A stretch of 64,000 nt of DNA from the NCBI GenBank assembly GCA_043776335.1, contig JAYVRL010000006.1, positions 33,011 to 97,010 on the forward strand, written 5' to 3'. Within the stretch, counting starts at the first letter, position 1. Every line of letters starts with the position of its first letter. The stretch is from Candidatus Peribacteria bacterium (GTDB lineage Bacteria > Patescibacteriota > Gracilibacteria > Peribacterales > Peribacteraceae). The notes beneath the pieces were generated by a model that was not told the origin of the DNA, made no database searches, and saw only the letters and a program-made list of their open reading frames with translations. Positions 7,714 to 58,349 of the stretch are shown here, piece after piece. The translations under genes and the position numbers were made by a program.

Positions 7714-8796
7714 TTACCCGAGGATTTCGCTCAGTCTGCCGCCCTCAATGGCCTGTTTGATGTCGCGCGCGATGCGACGACCCGTGCTCATCGGCACGTC
7801 ATACTTCAGCGCCGTGTACGGCGAGCCTTCGATGAACGGATTGGTGCCGGCGACGATGCGCGCGCTGATCTCGAAGACGAACGTCTGCAACTTGCGCGTC
7901 ACGATGGTTTCCAAGCAAAAAGGGCCGAAAAGGCCTTTCGTGAGCTTCTTCATGGTCTTCGTATTGTGCAGTTTGCGACTGGCTTTGAGCACTCGCTCGC
8001 CCATCTGAAAGAATTCGGGAAGCATCGACTCACGCACGACGAGCGGAATGTTGCCAACGATCGTGTAGCTGGTGTGAATCTTGGCGGCGAGCTGATCCTC
8101 GGCCTTGATGCGTCCGATGGAATCGGCATTCGACTCATAGCGTTTGTCAAAGCTCATGATCTCCAATTCACCCGTGATCGGGGAGTAGAAATAATGGATG
8201 TAGAGCGGGACGCCGATGATATATTCCTGAATCGTGAAATCGTTTTCGTCGGGATACTTGCGATTCTTCACTTCGTAAAATTGTTCGGCGTTGCGAACGA
8301 CGAAATACCCGAAGCCTCCTCCCGCGCCGTGAAATTTCACGATCACGGGACAATCGATGTCCTCCGGTTTCTCAAACACGCGAGGCATCAAAATTTTGGC
8401 GTCCAGAAGCCACTCTCTCTCCATCGTGCGATTGCTCTCCCATTCGAGGATTTCTTTCGTGCCGTAGTACATCGTCTTCATGGACTGCACTTTCTCATGA
8501 CCCATGTACGAGATGAACGATCCGTGCGGGATGATGATGGCCTTCGACTTCAGAAGCTCCGGCTCGATCTTCTTGTCCCACTCACTCCACTCGTCGACGA
8601 TCAAAATCGTGTCGGCCACGCCGAAACTTTTGTACACGCCCTCGGTGCCGCGCTTGCAGACGACGATGTTCGGTACGCCCTCGTCGCGCGCACCTTTCAA
8701 GATCTGCAATGCCGAATGACTGCCGATCGTGGCGATGCAATAATCCTTGGGATTACATGAAACGCCTGCCGTCGATTTCTTCTTGGCTGGAACCAT
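7714..8796 (-). CDS. purP: archaeal-type FAICAR synthetase PurP, paralogue 2
   Basis: 360 aa. Strong resemblance to M. jannaschii PurP: IATIGSHSALQILKGA, IIPHGSFISYMG, VIVKFHGAGGGFGYF, HYFYSPITGELEIMSFDKRYESN, GPFCLE, GRRIARDIK. Confidence 0.88.
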   Translation of the reverse strand: MVPAKKKSTAGVSCNPKDYCIATIGSHSALQILKGARDEGVPNIVVCKRGTEGVYKSFGVADTILIVDEWSEWDKKIEPELLKSKAIIIPHGSFISYMGHEKVQSMKTMYYGTKEILEWESNRTMEREWLLDAKILMPRVFEKPEDIDCPVIVKFHGAGGGFGYFVVRNAEQFYEVKNRKYPDENDFTIQEYIIGVPLYIHYFYSPITGELEIMSFDKRYESNADSIGRIKAEDQLAAKIHTSYTIVGNIPLVVRESMLPEFFQMGERVLKASRKLHNTKTMKKLTKGLFGPFCLETIVTRKLQTFVFEISARIVAGTNPFIEGSPYTALKYDVPMSTGRRIARDIKQAIEGGRLSEILG

Positions 8797-10481: not shown

Positions 10482-12950
10482 ATGAAAAACGCGACGTTCT
10501 CGGCGCTCTCCCTGCTCGCACTCACCCTGCAGCTGGCGACTCCGACGGCGGGTGCCACGGGCGCTTGCTCCGTCAGTGCTCTCGATACGGTTGCCGGCCT
10601 CGGCACGCAGGTTTCAGTGAACATGTGCGATGCGGGACTCGCGACGATCATCGAGATGCGCGGACCGGAGAGTGCAATCTATATCCAACACATCACTCTG
10701 GATGCGGGAGGTTCCGCGACGACGTTGATCCCTTCCAAAAATACGATCGCCGCAGGACGTTACGAATTCACGGTCGCAGGCAAAAGCGGCAGTTTCAATG
10801 TGCTGGCCGATCGCGCGGACGACGCGCACTCCACGCTGACCGTGACTCCGCAGATCATCGCAGCCGACGGTCAATCCTCGGCGACGGTCACCGCCGTACT
10901 GAGAGACCGTTACGACAATGCCGTATCGGGGCGGCCGCTCGCGCTCATCGCCAGCCGCCTCACGGACGAAGTCGAGGCACAATCGAAGCAAACCGATGAC
11001 AACGGCCGTTTCCTCTGGACCGTGCGTTCGGCGGAACGGGGCACCACAAGTCTCGTGGTCTACGACATCGCTGGTGCGAGGCAGATGAAGCTCCGTGTGA
11101 ATCTGTCGTTCGGCTCCAAAAGCTCGACACTCGGAGCATCGCTCACCGGATTCGAACAAGGCGGCACCTCACCGCAAAAGGCAATCGCTCCCAGTGCGTG
11201 GACCGCGGCTACCACGGACATCACCACGACGGATACGATGATCGATCACTATGAAGTTGCGCTGCCGCAGAACGCCACCGACGTGAAAGCGAACGAACTC
11301 TTCAGTCTGACGATTCGCGCGATGCGCGGAACGGAATTGATCCGAGGATATATCGGCACGCTCGTCGTGAAGTGCTCGGATACGGACGCGGATTTGCCGA
11401 AGAAAGGCACCGATCCGAAAAACCCGAAACTCGGGCACGTGGACATGCGCGGCGTCGATCAGGGCGAACGCAACGTGCCGCTGGCTTTCGTCTTGCGCGC
11501 CACGGGAACGCAGACCATCGAGTTCGCGGATCAAATGGATGCGACGATCACGGGGAAAATCACACTCAATGTCACGGGCGGCGACAGCGGCGGCACGGGG
11601 AAAATCACGATTCTCGATCCTCGAGACCGTTCCACGATCCGCAGCGGTCCCATCACGCTCCAGGGTCACGCTCCGAGTCTCGTGAATCTGAAAGTGAAAG
11701 GCGGATCCGATGTCGTCATGGGCGAAACGGATTCAGAAGGCGTCTTCCGCATCAACGTCCCGATCAATCCTCAAGACAAAGAAGTGACGCTCTTCGTCAC
11801 GAGCGAAAACGGCACGTACGAATCCGACCCCGTGCATATCATCATCGACACCGATCCTCCAGTGATCTCAACGATCACGATCGATCCCGCCGAAACGAAA
11901 GCGACTGATCAAGCGCAGCTCACCGTGAAATCCGAGCCCGCTCTCGGCGCCGTGACGGCATCGATGAACGGTCAAAACTTCACGCTCATAGAAGACCCCG
12001 CAAGCCCTGGGCAATATCAAGTGGCGCTCACTGCGCCCGCTCAAGAAGGCACCTATGACATCACCGTCACCGCTGCCGATCCGGTCGGCAACACGACGAC
12101 GATGCTCACGAAGTGGACGGTGAAAGCCAAAAGCATGCCGATCGTCCAGAATGTCACGGCCGAAGCGCAGGCCGCGACGATCGCGGTAAAATGGACGGCG
12201 ATCACGGCGGTGCCGGTAATCAACTATAAAATCTACATCTCGACGGAAGACGATCCGACGAATTATCTCTACGGCATCTCGACCGGCAAACCGGTGACAT
12301 CCGCCGTGATCAAAGATCTGCCTCTCGGCAAAACGTATCTGTTCTCTCTCACGGCGATCGGCGGAGAAAACATGGAGAGTCCGGAGAAAAGCATCCCCGC
12401 CAAAGCGGCCCCTCTCGGACTGCAAATCACCGTCATCCCCGGCCAAGACAGCTTGATGCTGGAGTGGATGCCGATGCCGAACCTCCCGCTCGATCACTAC
12501 GTGCTGCAATACGGCACCGAAGCGGGCGTGTATCCCGAGCAACGGACGGTAAACGGAGAAGCGAAGGCCACGGTGTTGCATGATCTCCTGAACGGCGTGA
12601 CCTACGAAGTGAAGCTGACTCCCGTGACGGTCACCGGCAAACCGATGCCCGAACTCGCCGCCATCGGCCACGGAACGGTCGGCGGTACTGGTTTCACCGC
12701 AGGCCCCGTTGACCCGGTGCCGACGGATATCCTCGGTCATCCCGGCGCACCGCTGCACAATCCGAATCCCCTTCCGAATCCCAATCTCGTGGACGTGCCG
12801 ACGAATTCCGGCAGCGGCCTTTCATCCATGATGCTCGGCTTCGTCGGCATGATCGCTCTCGTCGGCGGTCTCCTGTGGCGCCGCATGAAAATGGAACAAC
12901 GAAAGACGCGTGATTTCATGCTCATGATGCAGCAACGCTATCACTTGTGA
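10482..12950 (+). CDS. large cell-surface protein with Ig-like/fibronectin-III-like repeats and C-terminal membrane anchor
   Basis: ORF 10443..12950 trimmed to ATG 10482 (MKNATFSALSLLALTLQLATPTAGA signal). Repeated beta-rich T/V/S modules. The C-terminus is ...VPTNSGSG, then hydrophobic LSSMMLGFVGMIALVGGLLW, then RRMK. Confidence 0.75.
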   Translation: MKNATFSALSLLALTLQLATPTAGATGACSVSALDTVAGLGTQVSVNMCDAGLATIIEMRGPESAIYIQHITLDAGGSATTLIPSKNTIAAGRYEFTVAGKSGSFNVLADRADDAHSTLTVTPQIIAADGQSSATVTAVLRDRYDNAVSGRPLALIASRLTDEVEAQSKQTDDNGRFLWTVRSAERGTTSLVVYDIAGARQMKLRVNLSFGSKSSTLGASLTGFEQGGTSPQKAIAPSAWTAATTDITTTDTMIDHYEVALPQNATDVKANELFSLTIRAMRGTELIRGYIGTLVVKCSDTDADLPKKGTDPKNPKLGHVDMRGVDQGERNVPLAFVLRATGTQTIEFADQMDATITGKITLNVTGGDSGGTGKITILDPRDRSTIRSGPITLQGHAPSLVNLKVKGGSDVVMGETDSEGVFRINVPINPQDKEVTLFVTSENGTYESDPVHIIIDTDPPVISTITIDPAETKATDQAQLTVKSEPALGAVTASMNGQNFTLIEDPASPGQYQVALTAPAQEGTYDITVTAADPVGNTTTMLTKWTVKAKSMPIVQNVTAEAQAATIAVKWTAITAVPVINYKIYISTEDDPTNYLYGISTGKPVTSAVIKDLPLGKTYLFSLTAIGGENMESPEKSIPAKAAPLGLQITVIPGQDSLMLEWMPMPNLPLDHYVLQYGTEAGVYPEQRTVNGEAKATVLHDLLNGVTYEVKLTPVTVTGKPMPELAAIGHGTVGGTGFTAGPVDPVPTDILGHPGAPLHNPNPLPNPNLVDVPTNSGSGLSSMMLGFVGMIALVGGLLWRRMKMEQRKTRDFMLMMQQRYHL

Positions 12951-14728: not shown

Positions 14729-16138
14729 ATGGAAAAAATTGCATTGAACATCGCGCAGACAAAGAAAGAACAGCGTGATATTCTCTCCCTCCGTATGCAG
14801 GTGTCTCCGCGCGTGTACGCTCCGATCTTGATCGCGCTCGCTCTGAGCGCGGTGATCGGCGGTTTGTTCCTCTGGCAAATCCACTCTTCGGTGAAGACGA
14901 TCGAGTCGTCTTTCACGGTGCAGGGAAACAATGCGAACTTCTTGAAAAAACTCCTGCCCGGAAAAAACTCGACCACCCTCGACAGCGTCAGCCAATCGCA
15001 ATCGTTGATGGAGCTGCGACAAGGAGAAATCTTCGAATTGAAGGGAGAATGGAAACAGGCGCAAACGCACTATGAAAAAAGCGTCCAAACGGGCGGCGGT
15101 TCGCCGGCATTGAAAAAACTGGCAAGCATCCAGCTCCAACGTCGGGAATATGACGATGCCAAGCAAACGATCGACACACTGAAAGAGGAGAGCCGCGACA
15201 GCGACGACATCATGCTGCTGGAAGGCATCCTCGCGCTGCGCAAAGGTGACGGTGCGGCGGCCATCGCCATTTTCAGTCGCAGAGCGGACGCGCCGCAGTC
15301 GCACTACGGACTCGGCCTTGCGGCCATCAGTCGCGGCGATCATCCGTCGGCGCAGAAAGAATTCACCCTCGCCGCGCAAGGCAGCGACGCGACCATCCGC
15401 GATTATGCGAAGAAGATTCTTGCTTCATACGACGAATTTTCGCTCTTTCCGAACGGACAAGACATTCATCTCGCCACGCTGATCAGTCGTGCGCTCGCGG
15501 AAGTGAACGAATGTGAAACGGCGCTGCCACTTCTGAATGCAGTCGTCCTGAAACAGGGTCATTACCGCGATGCGTGGATCGTCAAAGGTTACTGCGAATT
15601 CACCTCCGAGAGACTGCCGGACGCGCTCACATCGCTCGAACAAGCCTACTCGCTGGATCCCGAGAAACCCGAGATTCAATACTTCCTCGCGCGCACGCAC
15701 GCGGCGCTCGGCGATCCGCAGAATGCCGTGACCTTCTTGCAATACGCTCTCGCCAACGGCTTCACTCCGCAAAAAGACGCCCGCGAATTGCTCGCGGAAT
15801 ATGCGACGGAGCTCGGCAACACCGATCTCGCCCTCGAGCAGTACAAACTGCTCGCGGAGGCGAAAGACAGCGACGTGCCGACGTATGCGAAATACATCAA
15901 TCTCGCGGTCGGATCGACGAATCACGCGCTCGACGCATTGAGTCTTGCCAAAGAAGCACTCGCTCGTTGGCCGGATGACGTGCCTGCGCTCACGTTGACC
16001 GCGAGAGCGGCTCTGGCAGCGGGACTGCCCGATGACGCCGAAAAGTACGTCGAAAGCGCACTCAAAATCGACCCGAAGTATCCGAAAGCACTCGAAGTGC
16101 GCGACGCGATCAAAAAGGCGGGAGTAACTGCGAAATGA
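14729..16138 (+). CDS. membrane-anchored tetratricopeptide-repeat (TPR) protein
   Basis: ORF 14699 (GTG)..16138 with preferred ATG at 14729. TM segment YAPILIALALSAVIGGLFLW followed by multiple A/L/Y-rich 34-aa-type repeats (...AEKYVESALKIDPKYPKALE). Confidence 0.75.
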   Translation: MEKIALNIAQTKKEQRDILSLRMQVSPRVYAPILIALALSAVIGGLFLWQIHSSVKTIESSFTVQGNNANFLKKLLPGKNSTTLDSVSQSQSLMELRQGEIFELKGEWKQAQTHYEKSVQTGGGSPALKKLASIQLQRREYDDAKQTIDTLKEESRDSDDIMLLEGILALRKGDGAAAIAIFSRRADAPQSHYGLGLAAISRGDHPSAQKEFTLAAQGSDATIRDYAKKILASYDEFSLFPNGQDIHLATLISRALAEVNECETALPLLNAVVLKQGHYRDAWIVKGYCEFTSERLPDALTSLEQAYSLDPEKPEIQYFLARTHAALGDPQNAVTFLQYALANGFTPQKDARELLAEYATELGNTDLALEQYKLLAEAKDSDVPTYAKYINLAVGSTNHALDALSLAKEALARWPDDVPALTLTARAALAAGLPDDAEKYVESALKIDPKYPKALEVRDAIKKAGVTAK

Positions 16139-54526: not shown

Positions 54527-57500
54527 CTAGAGCCCTTTCCGCTGACACCGGCTGTTCAAATATTCCGCGATCACGGAAGCGCTGATGATCAGAAGGCCGC
54601 TCACGATCAAGAGCAGCGTGGGTTGTACGGAATGAATCACGAGCGTTTCCACGATGAAAGTGATGAACACCGACAAATTGAACATGAGATGAGCCAAATA
54701 CCCGTCGATGCGCTTGAATGCGGCGTAATTGCACATTTGTCCGACACCTTCGAAAAGACCGATGCCGATGCCGAGCAGCACGGCTTTGATCGTCATGCCT
54801 CCGAAAATGGGCCAATGAAAAAGGGCCGCCAAGAGAATGAGCGGCGATACGAAAACCAAGAGATAGAAAAAGATGTGCAGATTGAGCGTCGCGGGATCGG
54901 ACTTCGGAAAGCCTTTGATGTATTGGATTTGCGACACGACAAGCAATACGTCGAACAGAGTCGCGATGAACGCGAGAATGTCTCCCAGAAGACTGGAAGT
55001 GCCTTCGGTGATGCTGCTGTAAACAAGAATAGAGCTCCCGATGCCGGCAATGATGGCGAGCAGGAAAATCCAAAACATCGTTCGGGGTCGCTTCAAATAG
55101 GGAATGTCGCGACGCCAGAACGCGGCGGCGACCAGCAGGCCGAGCAGCGGTGCGAAGTTGTTGAAGAGAAGAAGATTCGTGCCGGTGGTATGCACGAGGC
55201 TCGCGTTTTTCAGATACATGTACCCGATCTGAGCGATCACCAAAAAGAGAAAAAATTTATCGTGAGGAATCGTGAGAAAACTCCGCAGCGGCTTCCGTTC
55301 GCTCTTGAATACGAGCTGCCGGAAGAACAGCACCAAAGATGAAACCGCGAGCACGCCGAACGCGAGCAAAAAAGTCCTGACGAACGGAGAAAGCAAATTG
55401 GCGGAGGTGTAGCGGATGTAGATCGGCTCCAAGCCCCAAATGACGACTGCTCCGAGGCGGATGAGGTAACCGACGATTTTGCGGCGACGAAGCGCGGACC
55501 ATTGCTTGTCGCTGATCGGCTTGATGCGTCGTTCGTCGAAAGGCTGAAAAAGTTCTTCATTCTGGAAAAATTTGATGCCCATGTAGAAGAGGGACACCGT
55601 GAAAATCGCGATGAGAGGCAACAAACTGCTCGTGATCCTGTGCAAGATGACGATGCGCAGCGTCAACGTAAGAAGACCGATCACATTCAGAAGCAAACCG
55701 ACTCCAAGGAACCACCGATCGGAGCGCATGCGGGCGACATACTGTCGCAGCAGACGCAGAAGGTAATAGTTGGCGGCAAGGATCGGAATAAGCGGAATCG
55801 CCTGAATGAGAAATTGCGGTACCAACGAGAGACTCTCGAGTGCGCGCTCGTAGGCCGGAAAGAGGACGATATCGAGGACGACAACGGCAAACGCCAATGT
55901 GAAGGCGGCGACCAGCAGAAATTTCTGTTTTTTTGAAATGAGCGTCTGCACGCGCGCGACCCAATCTTGACGCTCGAGGAGATCGACGAAGTCCGCAAAC
56001 TGCAAACGATCGTCGCATGACCCTGTGAGGAGCAAATCGAAATGCCCGTTTGTCGCATTGAAATGGAGACTCGTGCGGTCGACGCTCACGTCGCTCAGGC
56101 GAATGACGCCGTTGAGCTGGGACAGAATATCGTTTTTGCGAAGCTGCGTTCCGTTCACATTGAGACGAAAGGAGTAGCGACTGTGCGCGACGGGCAACAA
56201 TCTCTGATGATCCGGGAAAAGGTAAAAAACGACGTCTCGGGCTCGTACGACGCCCTCACCGACCATCGCAAGCACGTCATCAAATTGTTCGCGACGAAAA
56301 TGTTGAGCCGCATGAACACATTGAATGCGAGAGAGATCCTGCAACAGTCCTTTGTTGTAATGATCAAGCTCTTTCTGCAGCAGCGCGGCGCCGAAAGCGG
56401 TCTTCTCGGAGCGATCCGTGCGCTTCAACACATCGATGATCAGAAGCCTCGCATGTTGCGTCGACACCATCTGCAACCAATCGAATGTGACCTGCTCGGT
56501 CGGATCGGTCGTGATGTGGACATCGTCATCTTCTTTCAACGTCTCGCCGAGCGGCACCGTGCGACCGTTCACCGTGACGCTCTTCACAGAGCCTGCTTTC
56601 GCGTCGTACAGCGCGTAGGCCGCATCCAGAGCGGTCGAACCGTTCGGAAGCGACAGACGCTTTCGATCCACCGTGACCGAGCTCGACTCGCGCAGCACGT
56701 CGGACTCGAGTGCCTCCCAAAATGCGCTGCTGGAATCCCGTGTTTTCAAATCGAGCGATGCCGAACGTTTCAACCACGCGAAATTCGGAGCGACGTGCTC
56801 CGAGCCGAACATCGAAAGCGTGATGCCTTTCTTCGCCTGCTCAAACATGTGCGGAGTGCGGATGCGACATTCGATCACCGTGCCGCGCGGCAGTGTCACG
56901 TACGTATGAAGACTTTGATAACCCGCATCGCTCGGCGCTGCGATGAAATCGCGGAAATGACCGCTGACAGGCCTGTAGAGCGTATGGAGCGACTTGAGAA
57001 GACGATAACAATCCTCCTCGGTGCGAACGATGATCACGATGGAAAACGCGTCTTGGATGAGCGATGTGCCGCCGTGCTGCACGATGCGATCATGAAAAAT
57101 AAGCAGATTGCGCGGCAAAAGCGAGACGGACACGATGCCATGCGTCCCGTGCGACGTGCGCAGATCACGTTCAACCATCATGCGCAGCGGCTCACCTTCC
57201 ACGCACAAACGATCCCGCTCCGCTCTCTGATCCGCACCCTCGGGGAAAGCGTGCGGCACGCAATATTCCGCGAAGACGCGACGCACATCGCGCATGCCGA
57301 GGTGAAAAGCGATCTTGTAATAAATGGAAAGAGTTTCGAGAGCGAAGCGCTTTCGTCGCTCTTCCGTGGGCAATGCGTCGATCGTCTGCACGTTGTGCAC
57401 GCGATCGGCAAGCTTGATGAGGATGCTGCGCATATCGAGCCGCATGACGTCGAAGAGCTTTCGAAGCGTCTCGATCTTGCGATCCAAAGGCAAATCGGGG

Positions 57501-57826
57501 CTCAGGTCAGCCTGCGTGAACTTCGTGATGCCTTCGACGAGTAACGCCACTCGGCGCCCGAATTGGCGCACCAGTTCTTCTTTCTCGGTCGGAGTGTCCT
57601 CCAAGACGTCGTGAAGCAGCGCCGCGATGATCGTGTCGCGGTCGGCACCCCACTCGGCGACGGTCTTCGCCACTTCGATCACATGCAAGACATACGGAGT
57701 CCCGTCTTCACGCTGCTGCGGAGCATGCGCCCTCACCGCAAACTCAAATCCTCTTCTCACGTCCGCTTTGTCCCCGCTCAGGAGATGCTGCAGGCTCGGC
57801 TCGAGAAGAGAAAAATCAATCTGCAT
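54527..57826 (-). CDS. long RelA/SpoT homologue (intact HD hydrolase motif, TGS, ACT-like) fused to a ~470-aa polytopic membrane module with EamA/DMT-like C-terminal half
   Basis: ORF trimmed to ATG 57826 (MQIDFSLLEP...). HD motifs HVIEVAKTV...AALLHDVLEDT. Synthetase-like region GYQSLHTYV, ECRIRT. TGS region VNGRTVPLGETLKEDDDVHI. From ~55939 leftward there are ~14 hydrophobic helices. Confidence 0.8.
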   Translation of the reverse strand: MQIDFSLLEPSLQHLLSGDKADVRRGFEFAVRAHAPQQREDGTPYVLHVIEVAKTVAEWGADRDTIIAALLHDVLEDTPTEKEELVRQFGRRVALLVEGITKFTQADLSPDLPLDRKIETLRKLFDVMRLDMRSILIKLADRVHNVQTIDALPTEERRKRFALETLSIYYKIAFHLGMRDVRRVFAEYCVPHAFPEGADQRAERDRLCVEGEPLRMMVERDLRTSHGTHGIVSVSLLPRNLLIFHDRIVQHGGTSLIQDAFSIVIIVRTEEDCYRLLKSLHTLYRPVSGHFRDFIAAPSDAGYQSLHTYVTLPRGTVIECRIRTPHMFEQAKKGITLSMFGSEHVAPNFAWLKRSASLDLKTRDSSSAFWEALESDVLRESSSVTVDRKRLSLPNGSTALDAAYALYDAKAGSVKSVTVNGRTVPLGETLKEDDDVHITTDPTEQVTFDWLQMVSTQHARLLIIDVLKRTDRSEKTAFGAALLQKELDHYNKGLLQDLSRIQCVHAAQHFRREQFDDVLAMVGEGVVRARDVVFYLFPDHQRLLPVAHSRYSFRLNVNGTQLRKNDILSQLNGVIRLSDVSVDRTSLHFNATNGHFDLLLTGSCDDRLQFADFVDLLERQDWVARVQTLISKKQKFLLVAAFTLAFAVVVLDIVLFPAYERALESLSLVPQFLIQAIPLIPILAANYYLLRLLRQYVARMRSDRWFLGVGLLLNVIGLLTLTLRIVILHRITSSLLPLIAIFTVSLFYMGIKFFQNEELFQPFDERRIKPISDKQWSALRRRKIVGYLIRLGAVVIWGLEPIYIRYTSANLLSPFVRTFLLAFGVLAVSSLVLFFRQLVFKSERKPLRSFLTIPHDKFFLFLVIAQIGYMYLKNASLVHTTGTNLLLFNNFAPLLGLLVAAAFWRRDIPYLKRPRTMFWIFLLAIIAGIGSSILVYSSITEGTSSLLGDILAFIATLFDVLLVVSQIQYIKGFPKSDPATLNLHIFFYLLVFVSPLILLAALFHWPIFGGMTIKAVLLGIGIGLFEGVGQMCNYAAFKRIDGYLAHLMFNLSVFITFIVETLVIHSVQPTLLLIVSGLLIISASVIAEYLNSRCQRKGL

Positions 57827-57870
57827 CGGTGAGCAGTGTAGCGCAGACAGCTTCGGACGGCATTCAAACA

Positions 57871-57896
57871 ATAAAAAAGACCCTCCGGAGAGGGCC
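57871..57896 (-). terminator. intrinsic terminator 45 nt upstream of the RSH-membrane fusion gene
   Basis: Minus strand reads GGCCCTC-tccg-GAGGGTC followed by TTTTTTATT. Confidence 0.7.
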
Positions 57897-57910
57897 TTCT
57901 TGGCGCGGCA

Positions 57911-57943
57911 TTACTTGCCGCAGCTGCATCCACCGCCGAACAT
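57911..57943 (-). CDS. 10-codon ORF MFGGGCSCGK (candidate leader peptide or small-RNA-encoded peptide)
   Basis: ATGTTCGGCGGTGGATGCAGCTGCGGCAAGTAA lies between a near-consensus promoter and a terminator. No Shine-Dalgarno sequence. Confidence 0.3.
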   Translation of the reverse strand: MFGGGCSCGK

Positions 57944-57973
57944 AGAAGAGGGGGGAAAGAATTGAACAACCGC

Positions 57974-58003
57974 AGTATAGTTTAGTACTAAACCAATTGT
58001 CAA
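57974..58003 (-). promoter_or_regulatory. near-consensus sigma70 promoter (TTGACA-18-TATACT) on the minus strand
   Basis: Plus-strand TGTCAA at 57998-58003 and AGTATA at 57974-57979. Confidence 0.55.
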
Positions 58004-58151: not shown

Positions 58152-58349
58152 ATGGCTACAGGCACGATCAAGACCAAGACCGAGAAAGGTTTCGGATTTA
58201 TCTCCACCACGGACGGTTCTCCGGACGTGTTCTTCCATCTGAGCGCTTGCAACGGTCAATTTGACATGTTGCAGGTCGGCCAGACCGTTTCGTTCGACAT
58301 GGGTCAGGGACCGAAAGGCCCCAAGGCCGAGAACGTGATGGCTGCCTAA
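58152..58349 (+). CDS. cspA: cold-shock protein (CspA family)
   Basis: In-frame ATG 58152. MATGTIKTKTEKGFGFISTTDGSPDVFFHLSA contains RNP1 (KGFGFI) and RNP2-like (DVFFH) motifs. Long 5' UTR. Confidence 0.9.
   Translation: MATGTIKTKTEKGFGFISTTDGSPDVFFHLSACNGQFDMLQVGQTVSFDMGQGPKGPKAENVMAA

Follow-up and report, generated by a model that had tools for sequence, protein, structure and literature searches.

In the genome of a Candidatus Peribacteria bacterium (Peribacteraceae; GenBank assembly GCA_043776335.1), a stretch of 64,000 nucleotides (nt) of contig JAYVRL010000006.1 (positions 33,011 to 97,010, referred to here as the window and numbered from its first letter) carries on its minus strand, at 57871-58003, a cassette composed of a promoter, an open reading frame (ORF) of ten codons and an intrinsic terminator. 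On the evidence of its conservation, this mini-ORF is a real, coding, stand-alone micropeptide gene of Candidatus Peribacteria. The best explanation of the cassette is that it forms a monocistronic gene (~95 nt) whose product, the decapeptide MFGGGCSCGK, belongs to a family of Gly/Cys-rich micropeptides, and that this gene would be regulated together with an ATP-binding cassette (ABC) exporter by a Cys-rich repressor of the MarR type; this is held to be probable on balance, in a joint judgement that covers the gene, its regulon, the repressor and a role in thiol protection. The elements that are new here are a palindrome in the promoter spacer, what appears to be a small MarR-type regulon, and the apparent swap of regulator inside a conserved micropeptide family, for which a function can be proposed from these features.

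The micropeptide gene and its conservation

The cassette begins with a -35 hexamer TTGACA (57998-58003), detected in a promoter scan and nearly invariant across 20 aligned cassettes, and, after a spacer of 18 nt, a -10 hexamer TATACT (57974-57979), 11 of the 12 consensus positions being matched between 58003 and 57974. These boxes are followed by a predicted, pyrimidine-rich 5' leader of about 24 nt without a Shine-Dalgarno (SD) motif (57944-57967), whose start is placed at an invariant G near 57967; by the mini-ORF (57911-57943; ATG TTC GGC GGT GGA TGC AGC TGC GGC AAG TAA); by a small hairpin that holds the stop codon in its loop (TGCGGCA-AGTAA-TGCCGCG, 57904-57922); and by the terminator, a AAGAAGGCCCTC-TCCG-GAGGGTCTT stem-loop with a T-run (57871-57901; stem of 12 pairs at 57901-57874, T-run ending near 57871). 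The promoter, the mini-ORF, the terminator and the distance to the downstream RSH gene had already been described in a sequence-only reading of this DNA, and all of them were recovered at the same positions of the minus strand. The significance of the cassette comes from its conservation and not from consensus scans of a single genome, in which one promoter-like site was found in the region against 1.2 expected, and four terminator-like sites against 3.2, figures that are insignificant alone.

BLAST searches against relatives recovered the cassette in six genomes, with a nearly invariant promoter and the mini-ORF in frame, the peptides encoded being MFGPGCGCGK, MFGGGCGCGK, MTGGCGCK, MSGGPGCGCN, MSGGCSGGCK and MIGGGCSGGCSC. 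The orthologues retain a G-G-x-C-x-C pattern, while their codons change synonymously among GGT, GGC and GGA and between TGC and TGT. The promoter-operator pattern gave 15 matches in 596 Gb of reference genomes, all 15 of them in Candidatus Peribacteria. When a sequence-only model of the cassette, running from the promoter to the stop codon, was searched in 200 Peribacteraceae genomes, it matched 140 of them, distributed among 59 of 84 genera, and the matches were full-length in 33 genomes (E-values down to 1e-25).

After the addition of weaker matches to the model, a set of 82 distinct genes was obtained, whose composition is partly selected by the filter used: the peptides have 8-31 residues (median 11) and 2-6 Cys, every one starts with M-x-G-G (pattern M-x-G-G...C-x-C), Gly and Cys account for 46% and 25% of residues, and CxC is present in 66 of them. 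Glycine and cysteine codons are used interchangeably (GGT 199, GGC 149, GGA 77; TGC 187, TGT 47), length differences are always triplets, and the frame is always kept. Thus, the suspicion raised in the sequence-only reading that the ORF could be fortuitous is not borne out, given a cassette found in 33 of 200 genomes, a related mini-gene in 140 of 200 and a frame that is maintained throughout, and the independent small RNA (sRNA) or micropeptide gene that it had offered as an alternative is upheld as a coding micropeptide gene.

When all six frames of the complete genome (1.36 Mb) were scanned without this filter, only two Gly/Cys-rich mini-ORFs were found, MFGGGCSCGK and MIGGAGCGSCGGSCK, and each of them has a promoter and a leader rich in pyrimidines before it and a terminator after it. 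The second gene lies on the minus strand of contig C62 (~2090-2140); its -10 box is TAGAAT, its leader reads TTCTTTCCCCTCTCCCT, and a terminator follows. Outside the family, Gly/Cys mini-genes were found in two of 16 sampled genomes of the class, coming from other families: MINLDGGCGCGGCKKDGGCGCGGCK, a tandem repeat, and MSGCGSCGCGSDMKKTPSKPKKPVKKK, which has a Lys-rich tail (loci L226, G033:C36, ~8488-8545, and L222, G029:C16, ~10831-10881). Searches of Pfam and NCBIfam with the 20-31-residue versions of the peptide returned no family, including no metallothionein or ribosomally synthesised and post-translationally modified peptide (RiPP) family, and no described family for the micropeptide was found in Pfam, NCBIfam, Rfam or the literature.

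The leader carries a motif, GTTCTATTC(A/T)TTCCCC, that is conserved among aligned cassettes, and atpE of the same genome has a near-identical leader, TTTCCCCCCTCTTCTATG. The sequence-only reading had pointed out that the ORF has no SD, and this is correct as an observation; as a doubt on the ORF it loses its weight in a genome in which 13.6% of long ORFs are preceded by SD-like motifs, compared with 17% in the background, and in which the leader of atpE is alike. Pyrimidine-rich upstream segments are four-fold enriched at the long ORFs of this genome. The 3' tail of its 16S rRNA (contig C4, around 15559-15620) ends ...GGAACATCTCCTTACC, and the anti-SD core is therefore CAUCUCCUUA and not CACCUCCUUA.

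A palindromic operator in place of CIRCE

The best-conserved part of the cassette, above the ORF itself, is a palindrome located in the promoter spacer. Its core, GGTTTAGTACTAAACT, occupies 16 bp at 57994-57979 (57979-57994 on both strands; consensus ATTAGTTTAGTACTAAACTAAT; extended form ATTGGTTTAGTACTAAACTATA, ~22 bp), and its right arm abuts and enters the -10 box. The sequence-only reading was right about the promoter, although it missed this operator, which is the key to its regulation. The placement of the palindrome over the -10 box or the transcription start is what would be expected of a repressor site, and a dimeric protein is predicted to bind there. With a symmetrised position weight matrix, exactly two sites were detected in the whole genome, scoring 37 bits at the micropeptide promoter and 21 bits at contig C4, 7987-8008.

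In most other genera, the homologues of the mini-gene carry instead the element CIRCE (controlling inverted repeat of chaperone expression), which is the operator of the heat-shock repressor HrcA, in the form TTAGCACTC-N9-GAGTGCTAG-ACA, which overlaps their TAGACA -35 box. The micropeptide promoter of the source genome was examined for the inverted repeat TTAGCACTC-N9-GAGTGCTAA, and CIRCE is absent from it. The second Gly/Cys gene, on contig C62, has neither CIRCE nor the palindrome. Automatic classification of the operators of the 82 genes assigned 44 to CIRCE, 26 to the new palindrome and 12 to other types; after reclassification by eye, in which one misclassified locus and five degenerate palindromes were moved, the adjusted tally is ~43 with CIRCE, ~32 with the palindrome and ~7 with neither.

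The source genome retains hrcA, and CIRCE-like repeats precede only groES-groEL and a clpB/C-like gene. Taking into account that hrcA and these CIRCE elements persist, the palindrome must be regarded as a separate operator and not as a drifted CIRCE. The elements are found at contig C50, 2780-2806, for groES-groEL (TTAGCAGTCAGGAGTTTAGAGTGCTAA), and contig C16, 12137-12163, for the clpB/C-like gene (TTATCACTCGAAGGAGTTGAGTGACAA); CIRCE at a Clp ATPase gene is less usual than at groESL. HrcA was rejected as the protein binding the palindrome, since both hrcA and classical CIRCE are present elsewhere in the genome. A DtxR/IdeR protein was also considered, the half-site TTAGTTTAG resembling an iron box, and was discarded: the PF01325 match lies below the cut-off (21 bits), is absent from congeners, does not correlate with the cassette, and proved to be a different MarR. 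LexA, whose gene lies inside the window, was excluded too, the weight matrix giving no palindrome upstream of lexA.

The two classes of genes also differ in their products. Peptides of the palindrome type have a mean length of 9.8 residues and a mean of 2.1 Cys, and none has acidic residues or CC pairs, whereas those of the CIRCE type have 14.3 residues and 3.4 Cys on average, 59% of them having acidic residues and 57% CC pairs. To judge from these distributions, in the source clade CIRCE has been replaced by a palindrome of 16-22 bp, and the peptides have changed alongside their regulation.

A putative two-gene regulon and its candidate repressor

The second palindrome (contig C4, 7987-8008) is flanked on one side by a TGATAGAAT -10 box and on the other by the start codon of a gene for a 571-residue ABC half-transporter. 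The operator is thus common to both genes: it overlaps the -10 box of the peptide gene and is found 3-17 nt before the ABC start codon in 17 of 21 palindrome-type genomes, against none of 10 others with the ABC gene, positions that are those of a MarR-type pair. Since no other sites are present in the genome, a small regulon of two genes is deduced. The matches of the ABC protein are generic, at the level of ABCB, ABCC, CydDC or MsbA, and all of them fall far below equivalog cut-offs. Divergent from the exporter gene, between it and yebC, a conserved protein of 280 residues is encoded (contig C4, 8094-8936; orthologues in G092 and G094), with no match in Pfam or NCBIfam.

The candidate repressor is encoded on contig C31 (13161-13583) and was found by an iterative search that started from another MarR of the same genome. 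The latter (contig C21, 12951-13382) was set aside, its gene being the first of a MacAB-like efflux operon and lacking the palindrome, and its weak relatives being widespread. The protein of contig C31 has 140 residues, 13 of them Cys, including the motifs SHCQ and CCHKSN; it scores 50.2 bits with the Pfam MarR model (cut-off 24.6), and its AlphaFold2 model has MarR topology with a mean confidence (predicted local distance difference test) of 93.8. Its closest Protein Data Bank entries are MarR proteins, the nearest being the uncharacterised 3BJA, and in NCBIfam it shows a weak match to the AdcR family, no equivalog cut-off being reached. Its gene has a purM-like and a PolX-like gene as neighbours, the latter starting 16 nt past the MarR stop codon.

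Orthologues of this MarR, defined by full-length alignment with E <= 1e-19, are present in 32 of the 33 genomes with a full-length palindrome cassette and in none of the 167 others. Regulator and operator also co-vary: in genus g71 the recognition helix reads CCSCGNISQ, compared with CCHKSN(V/I)TQ elsewhere, and in exactly the same five g71 genomes both operators read ACTTTAG..CTAAAGT and not AGTTTAG..CTAAACT. On these grounds, the MarR of contig C31 is likely to be the repressor that acts on the palindrome. Among 29 orthologues, Cys34 and Cys59 are invariant, and Cys58, Cys115 and Cys8 are present in 28, 27 and 26, respectively. In the structural model, Cys58, Cys59 and His60 lie in the turn that immediately precedes the recognition helix α4, Cys34 begins α2 and Cys115 terminates α5; as conserved cysteines flank the recognition helix, the protein probably senses thiol-reactive stress.

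Proposed function

It is proposed that, in the absence of stress, a dimeric repressor sitting on the spacer palindrome would block RNA polymerase, the Cys-rich MarR repressing in this way the promoters of both the peptide and the ABC exporter. An oxidant, an electrophile or a soft metal would then modify the cysteines of MarR and cause its release, and the mRNA of ~95 nt would be translated into MFGGGCSCGK. From what is generally known of methionine aminopeptidase, the initial Met is probably retained, Phe being the next residue. The peptide, a CxC dithiol, would chelate or reduce the stressor and buffer the stress, and the exporter would remove the stressor, the peptide, or its conjugates, metal complexes or adducts, as pumps of the MRP and Atm1 types do with glutathione adducts. 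Most likely, therefore, the product is a stress-induced dithiol peptide for protection against metals, redox stress or electrophiles, which is possibly exported.

The HrcA regulon responds to proteotoxic stress, and the control of the mini-genes by HrcA in sister lineages fits a role in thiol protection inside the cell. CxC is the commonest arrangement of Cys in metallothioneins, and the 26-residue metallothionein of Neurospora ends in ...GCSCSNCGSK (PMC4755600). Moreover, protein disulfide isomerase can be replaced in yeast by designed CxC peptides that are genetically encoded (10.64898/2026.01.27.701630). A bolder version of the proposal can be entertained, tentatively and with more doubt than confidence, in which the low-molecular-weight thiol of Peribacteria would be encoded as a gene, a CxC decapeptide taking the place of glutathione, phytochelatin or metallothionein, induced through MarR and exported by the ABC protein alone or as metal or electrophile adducts.

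Several observations weigh against the main interpretation. The co-occurrence of MarR and operator may reflect a single clade, i.e., one evolutionary event, and the covariation of recognition helix and operator is likewise one event in one genus. No palindrome precedes the MarR gene, which is on a different contig from the peptide gene and adjoins neither target; autoregulation or adjacency to a target is usual, although not obligatory, for MarR regulators. The ABC protein is a generic ABCB/ABCC-like exporter without a substrate signature, and four genomes of the same genus (G001-G004) carry the operator at the peptide gene with no palindrome at the ABC gene. Most palindrome-type genera show synteny between the cassette and RSH, and some functional coupling between them, for example by partial read-through, may exist. 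In addition, transcript ends, translation and the existence of the peptide are predicted from sequence alone, and metal binding, redox activity and export are attributed to it by analogy.

The four genomes without the exporter operator (ABC loci L173-L175 and L193) also keep MarR. Their ABC proteins share 56-58% identity with that of the source genome, compared with 69% for that of G097, which belongs to another genus, and this lower identity in congeners may be a sign that the exporter gene was replaced or transferred.

The adjacent RSH gene and alternative explanations

Downstream of the cassette lies the RSH gene (54527-57826, minus strand), in which HD, RelA_SpoT and TGS domains are fused to an EamA-type membrane module; it is a syntenic neighbour outside the unit, its ATG at 57826 being 45 nt past the T-run. 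The upstream boundary of the cassette is formed by a divergent gene (58152-58349, plus strand) for a cold-shock protein of 65 residues (CSD domain, 72.9 bits). A separate -10 box for RSH, TACACT, is predicted at 57835-57840, 8 nt before its ATG, so that the mRNA would be nearly leaderless. In the ABC exporter and MarR genes, a -10 box likewise stands close to the ATG, as in the RSH orthologues (window 57827-57840; loci L002-L109), which suggests that short or absent leaders are perhaps common in the lineage.

This arrangement was the basis of the reading preferred earlier, a leader-peptide attenuator in which ribosome stalling at Gly/Cys codons would control read-through of the terminator into RSH, linking the alarmone enzyme to tRNA charging. 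The order of promoter, short ORF, terminator and gene agrees with it, as do a codon content of four Gly and two Cys among ten, the position of the cassette directly upstream of an RSH orthologue in 22 loci of many genera, and the mycobacterial precedent of poly-Cys short ORFs (10.1101/834739). The spacing is variable: the distance between terminator and RSH ranges from 45 to 270 nt and is unconserved, as is the sequence of this spacer, and that between stop codon and terminator varies from ~10 to 35 nt. Each of the 22 RSH genes is preceded, 8-20 nt from its ATG, by a TAnnnT -10 box of its own (mostly TATACT or TACACT). In four congeners (G001, G002, G003 and G005) the cassette persists at a site from which RSH is missing, and RSH follows none of the 20 CIRCE-type copies that were checked in other genera. 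The terminator is the sole structure in the RNAalifold consensus of 21 transcripts, with compensatory changes in seven of its 12 pairs, and neither an antiterminator nor any other conserved alternative fold appears in that consensus; the pairing of leader with terminator that had been suggested is found neither there nor in the minimum free energy fold of the sequence itself. Furthermore, RSH lies outside Cys and Gly metabolism, and it is the pattern of the peptide, and not its codon content alone, that is conserved, beyond the needs of a pure codon sensor. Attenuation of RSH is accordingly regarded as highly improbable. The own -10 boxes of RSH and the contexts of the CIRCE-type genes make the cassette a unit independent of RSH; their adjacency looks like synteny inherited within one clade, and the RSH gene is most likely transcribed from its own, predicted near-leaderless promoter. 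A second possibility at the RNA level is that the transcript of ~95 nt acts mainly as a base-pairing sRNA, the ORF being incidental or secondary as in a dual-function RNA. Its size, its layout and its strong terminator are those of an sRNA, the 5' leader is conserved, and the hairpin around the stop codon co-varies in both arms with the last codons (GGCAA/TTGCC, GCTGC/GCAGC, GGTCAG/CTGACC): across the 82 genes its mean stem is 4.94 bp, compared with 4.36 +/- 0.11 when the 3' partners are permuted, and 0 of 500 permutations reach the observed value, in a statistic that ignores relatedness. Nevertheless, the variation is synonymous and frame-preserving, with indels in triplets; the peptide character is retained in ORFs of 8 to 31 codons; the leader is of the kind seen at established genes, atpE among them; and no Rfam family reached its gathering threshold, the best match being STnc100 (20.8 bits against 47), on the terminator only. 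Thus, a main role as sRNA is very unlikely.

Other explanations accept the peptide and assign to it a different fate. It could be made for export, as a pheromone or as a thiol metallophore for acquiring metals, leaving through the ABC protein, with MarR as a metal-dependent, AdcR-like co-repressor or a signal sensor and not a sensor of stress. Such a role would account for the operator common to the peptide and exporter genes, it suits the short peptides of the palindrome clade (mean 9.8 residues, two Cys and a basic or polar C-terminus) as transporter substrates, and zinc-dependent MarRs of the AdcR type exist, to which the protein of contig C31 has its weak NCBIfam match. It is considered unlikely, though less so than the RNA-level explanations, because neither gene is linked to an import system or a receptor, control by HrcA in sister lineages points to intracellular stress protection, and the ABC gene of four congeners is without the operator. 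A RiPP precursor, for instance a methanobactin-like or thioamide one, would also be Cys-rich, and the methanobactin core LCGSCYPCSCM has a similar flavour. With 8-12 residues there is no space for a leader peptide, however; no maturase is a conserved neighbour, the contexts varying among lineages; and the longer versions match no RiPP family in Pfam or NCBIfam, all of which makes a RiPP scarcely credible. The stress-induced dithiol peptide continues to be the interpretation that we prefer.

Significance

Annotation pipelines do not see genes of about ten codons, and those that are noticed are usually called chance ORFs or leader peptides. The present one belongs to a micropeptide family conserved across an order of bacteria with ultra-small genomes (candidate phyla radiation) and, as predicted here, placed under dedicated stress regulators. 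The move from HrcA to a Cys-rich MarR, which would also control an exporter, constitutes a natural experiment on the purpose of the peptide. If a gene-encoded dithiol is confirmed, it would represent a route to thiol-based metal and redox protection with minimal biosynthesis, it would extend the range of metallothionein-like molecules down to 8-10 residues, and it would be the smallest stand-alone functional peptide gene of its kind known, the equivalent in nature of the CxC peptides designed as catalysts. The interpretation of the RSH locus is corrected as well, the alarmone gene being most likely expressed independently of the cassette.

Comparison with known systems

The closest systems are the Gly/Cys mini-genes under HrcA/CIRCE of other Peribacteria, of which no published description was found in the literature. 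They have in common with the gene of the source genome the leader, a Cys-rich ORF starting with M-x-G-G, the terminator and the stand-alone layout, whereas the latter lacks CIRCE and has a spacer palindrome that is also found at the ABC exporter gene. The peptides of the source clade are shorter (~10 compared with ~14 residues), with only two Cys and neither acidic residues nor CC pairs.

In composition, with 20% Cys and a CSC motif, the peptide corresponds to a metallothionein. Like the copper metallothionein of Neurospora crassa (MGDCGCSGASSCNCGSGCSCSNCGSK; PMC4755600), of 26 residues, it is small and rich in Cys and Gly, with CxC and a C-terminal G-(S)-K, although it is 2.5 times shorter, has two thiols and shows no detectable homology. 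Stress-type regulation, predicted here, is another trait in common with metallothioneins. With two thiols per peptide, no metal-thiolate cluster would be expected from one molecule, only bis-thiolate or intermolecular complexes. To our knowledge, control by HrcA or MarR is not known among metallothioneins.

As regards the regulator, the protein of contig C31 resembles OhrR, MgrA/SarZ, MarR of E. coli and AdcR/ZitR in its MarR fold, in a promoter-overlapping palindrome, in the presence of an exporter in the predicted regulon and in its conserved Cys. It differs from these thiol- and metal-sensing proteins in an unusually high number of conserved Cys, including the CC-H triplet before the recognition helix, in the lack of autoregulation or target adjacency, and in having one target of only ten codons.

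The poly-Cys short ORFs of mycobacteria are Cys-responsive attenuators (10.1101/834739), and they and the classical leaders trpL, hisL and pheL are likewise very short ORFs upstream of a gene. However, the mycobacterial and classical leader ORFs are co-transcribed with the genes that they control, Cys-metabolic ones in the former case, and rely on alternative RNA structures, whereas the cassette ends in a terminator of its own, a separate promoter is predicted for the next gene, and the peptide sequence is conserved.

Finally, glutathione and phytochelatin, with the export of thiols by MRP/ABCC, HMT1, Atm1 and CydDC, offer the parallel of a small thiol paired with an ABCB/ABCC-like exporter. 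In those systems the thiol is made by enzymes; in Peribacteria it would be made by the ribosome from a dedicated gene, and its transport is a prediction of the regulon described here.

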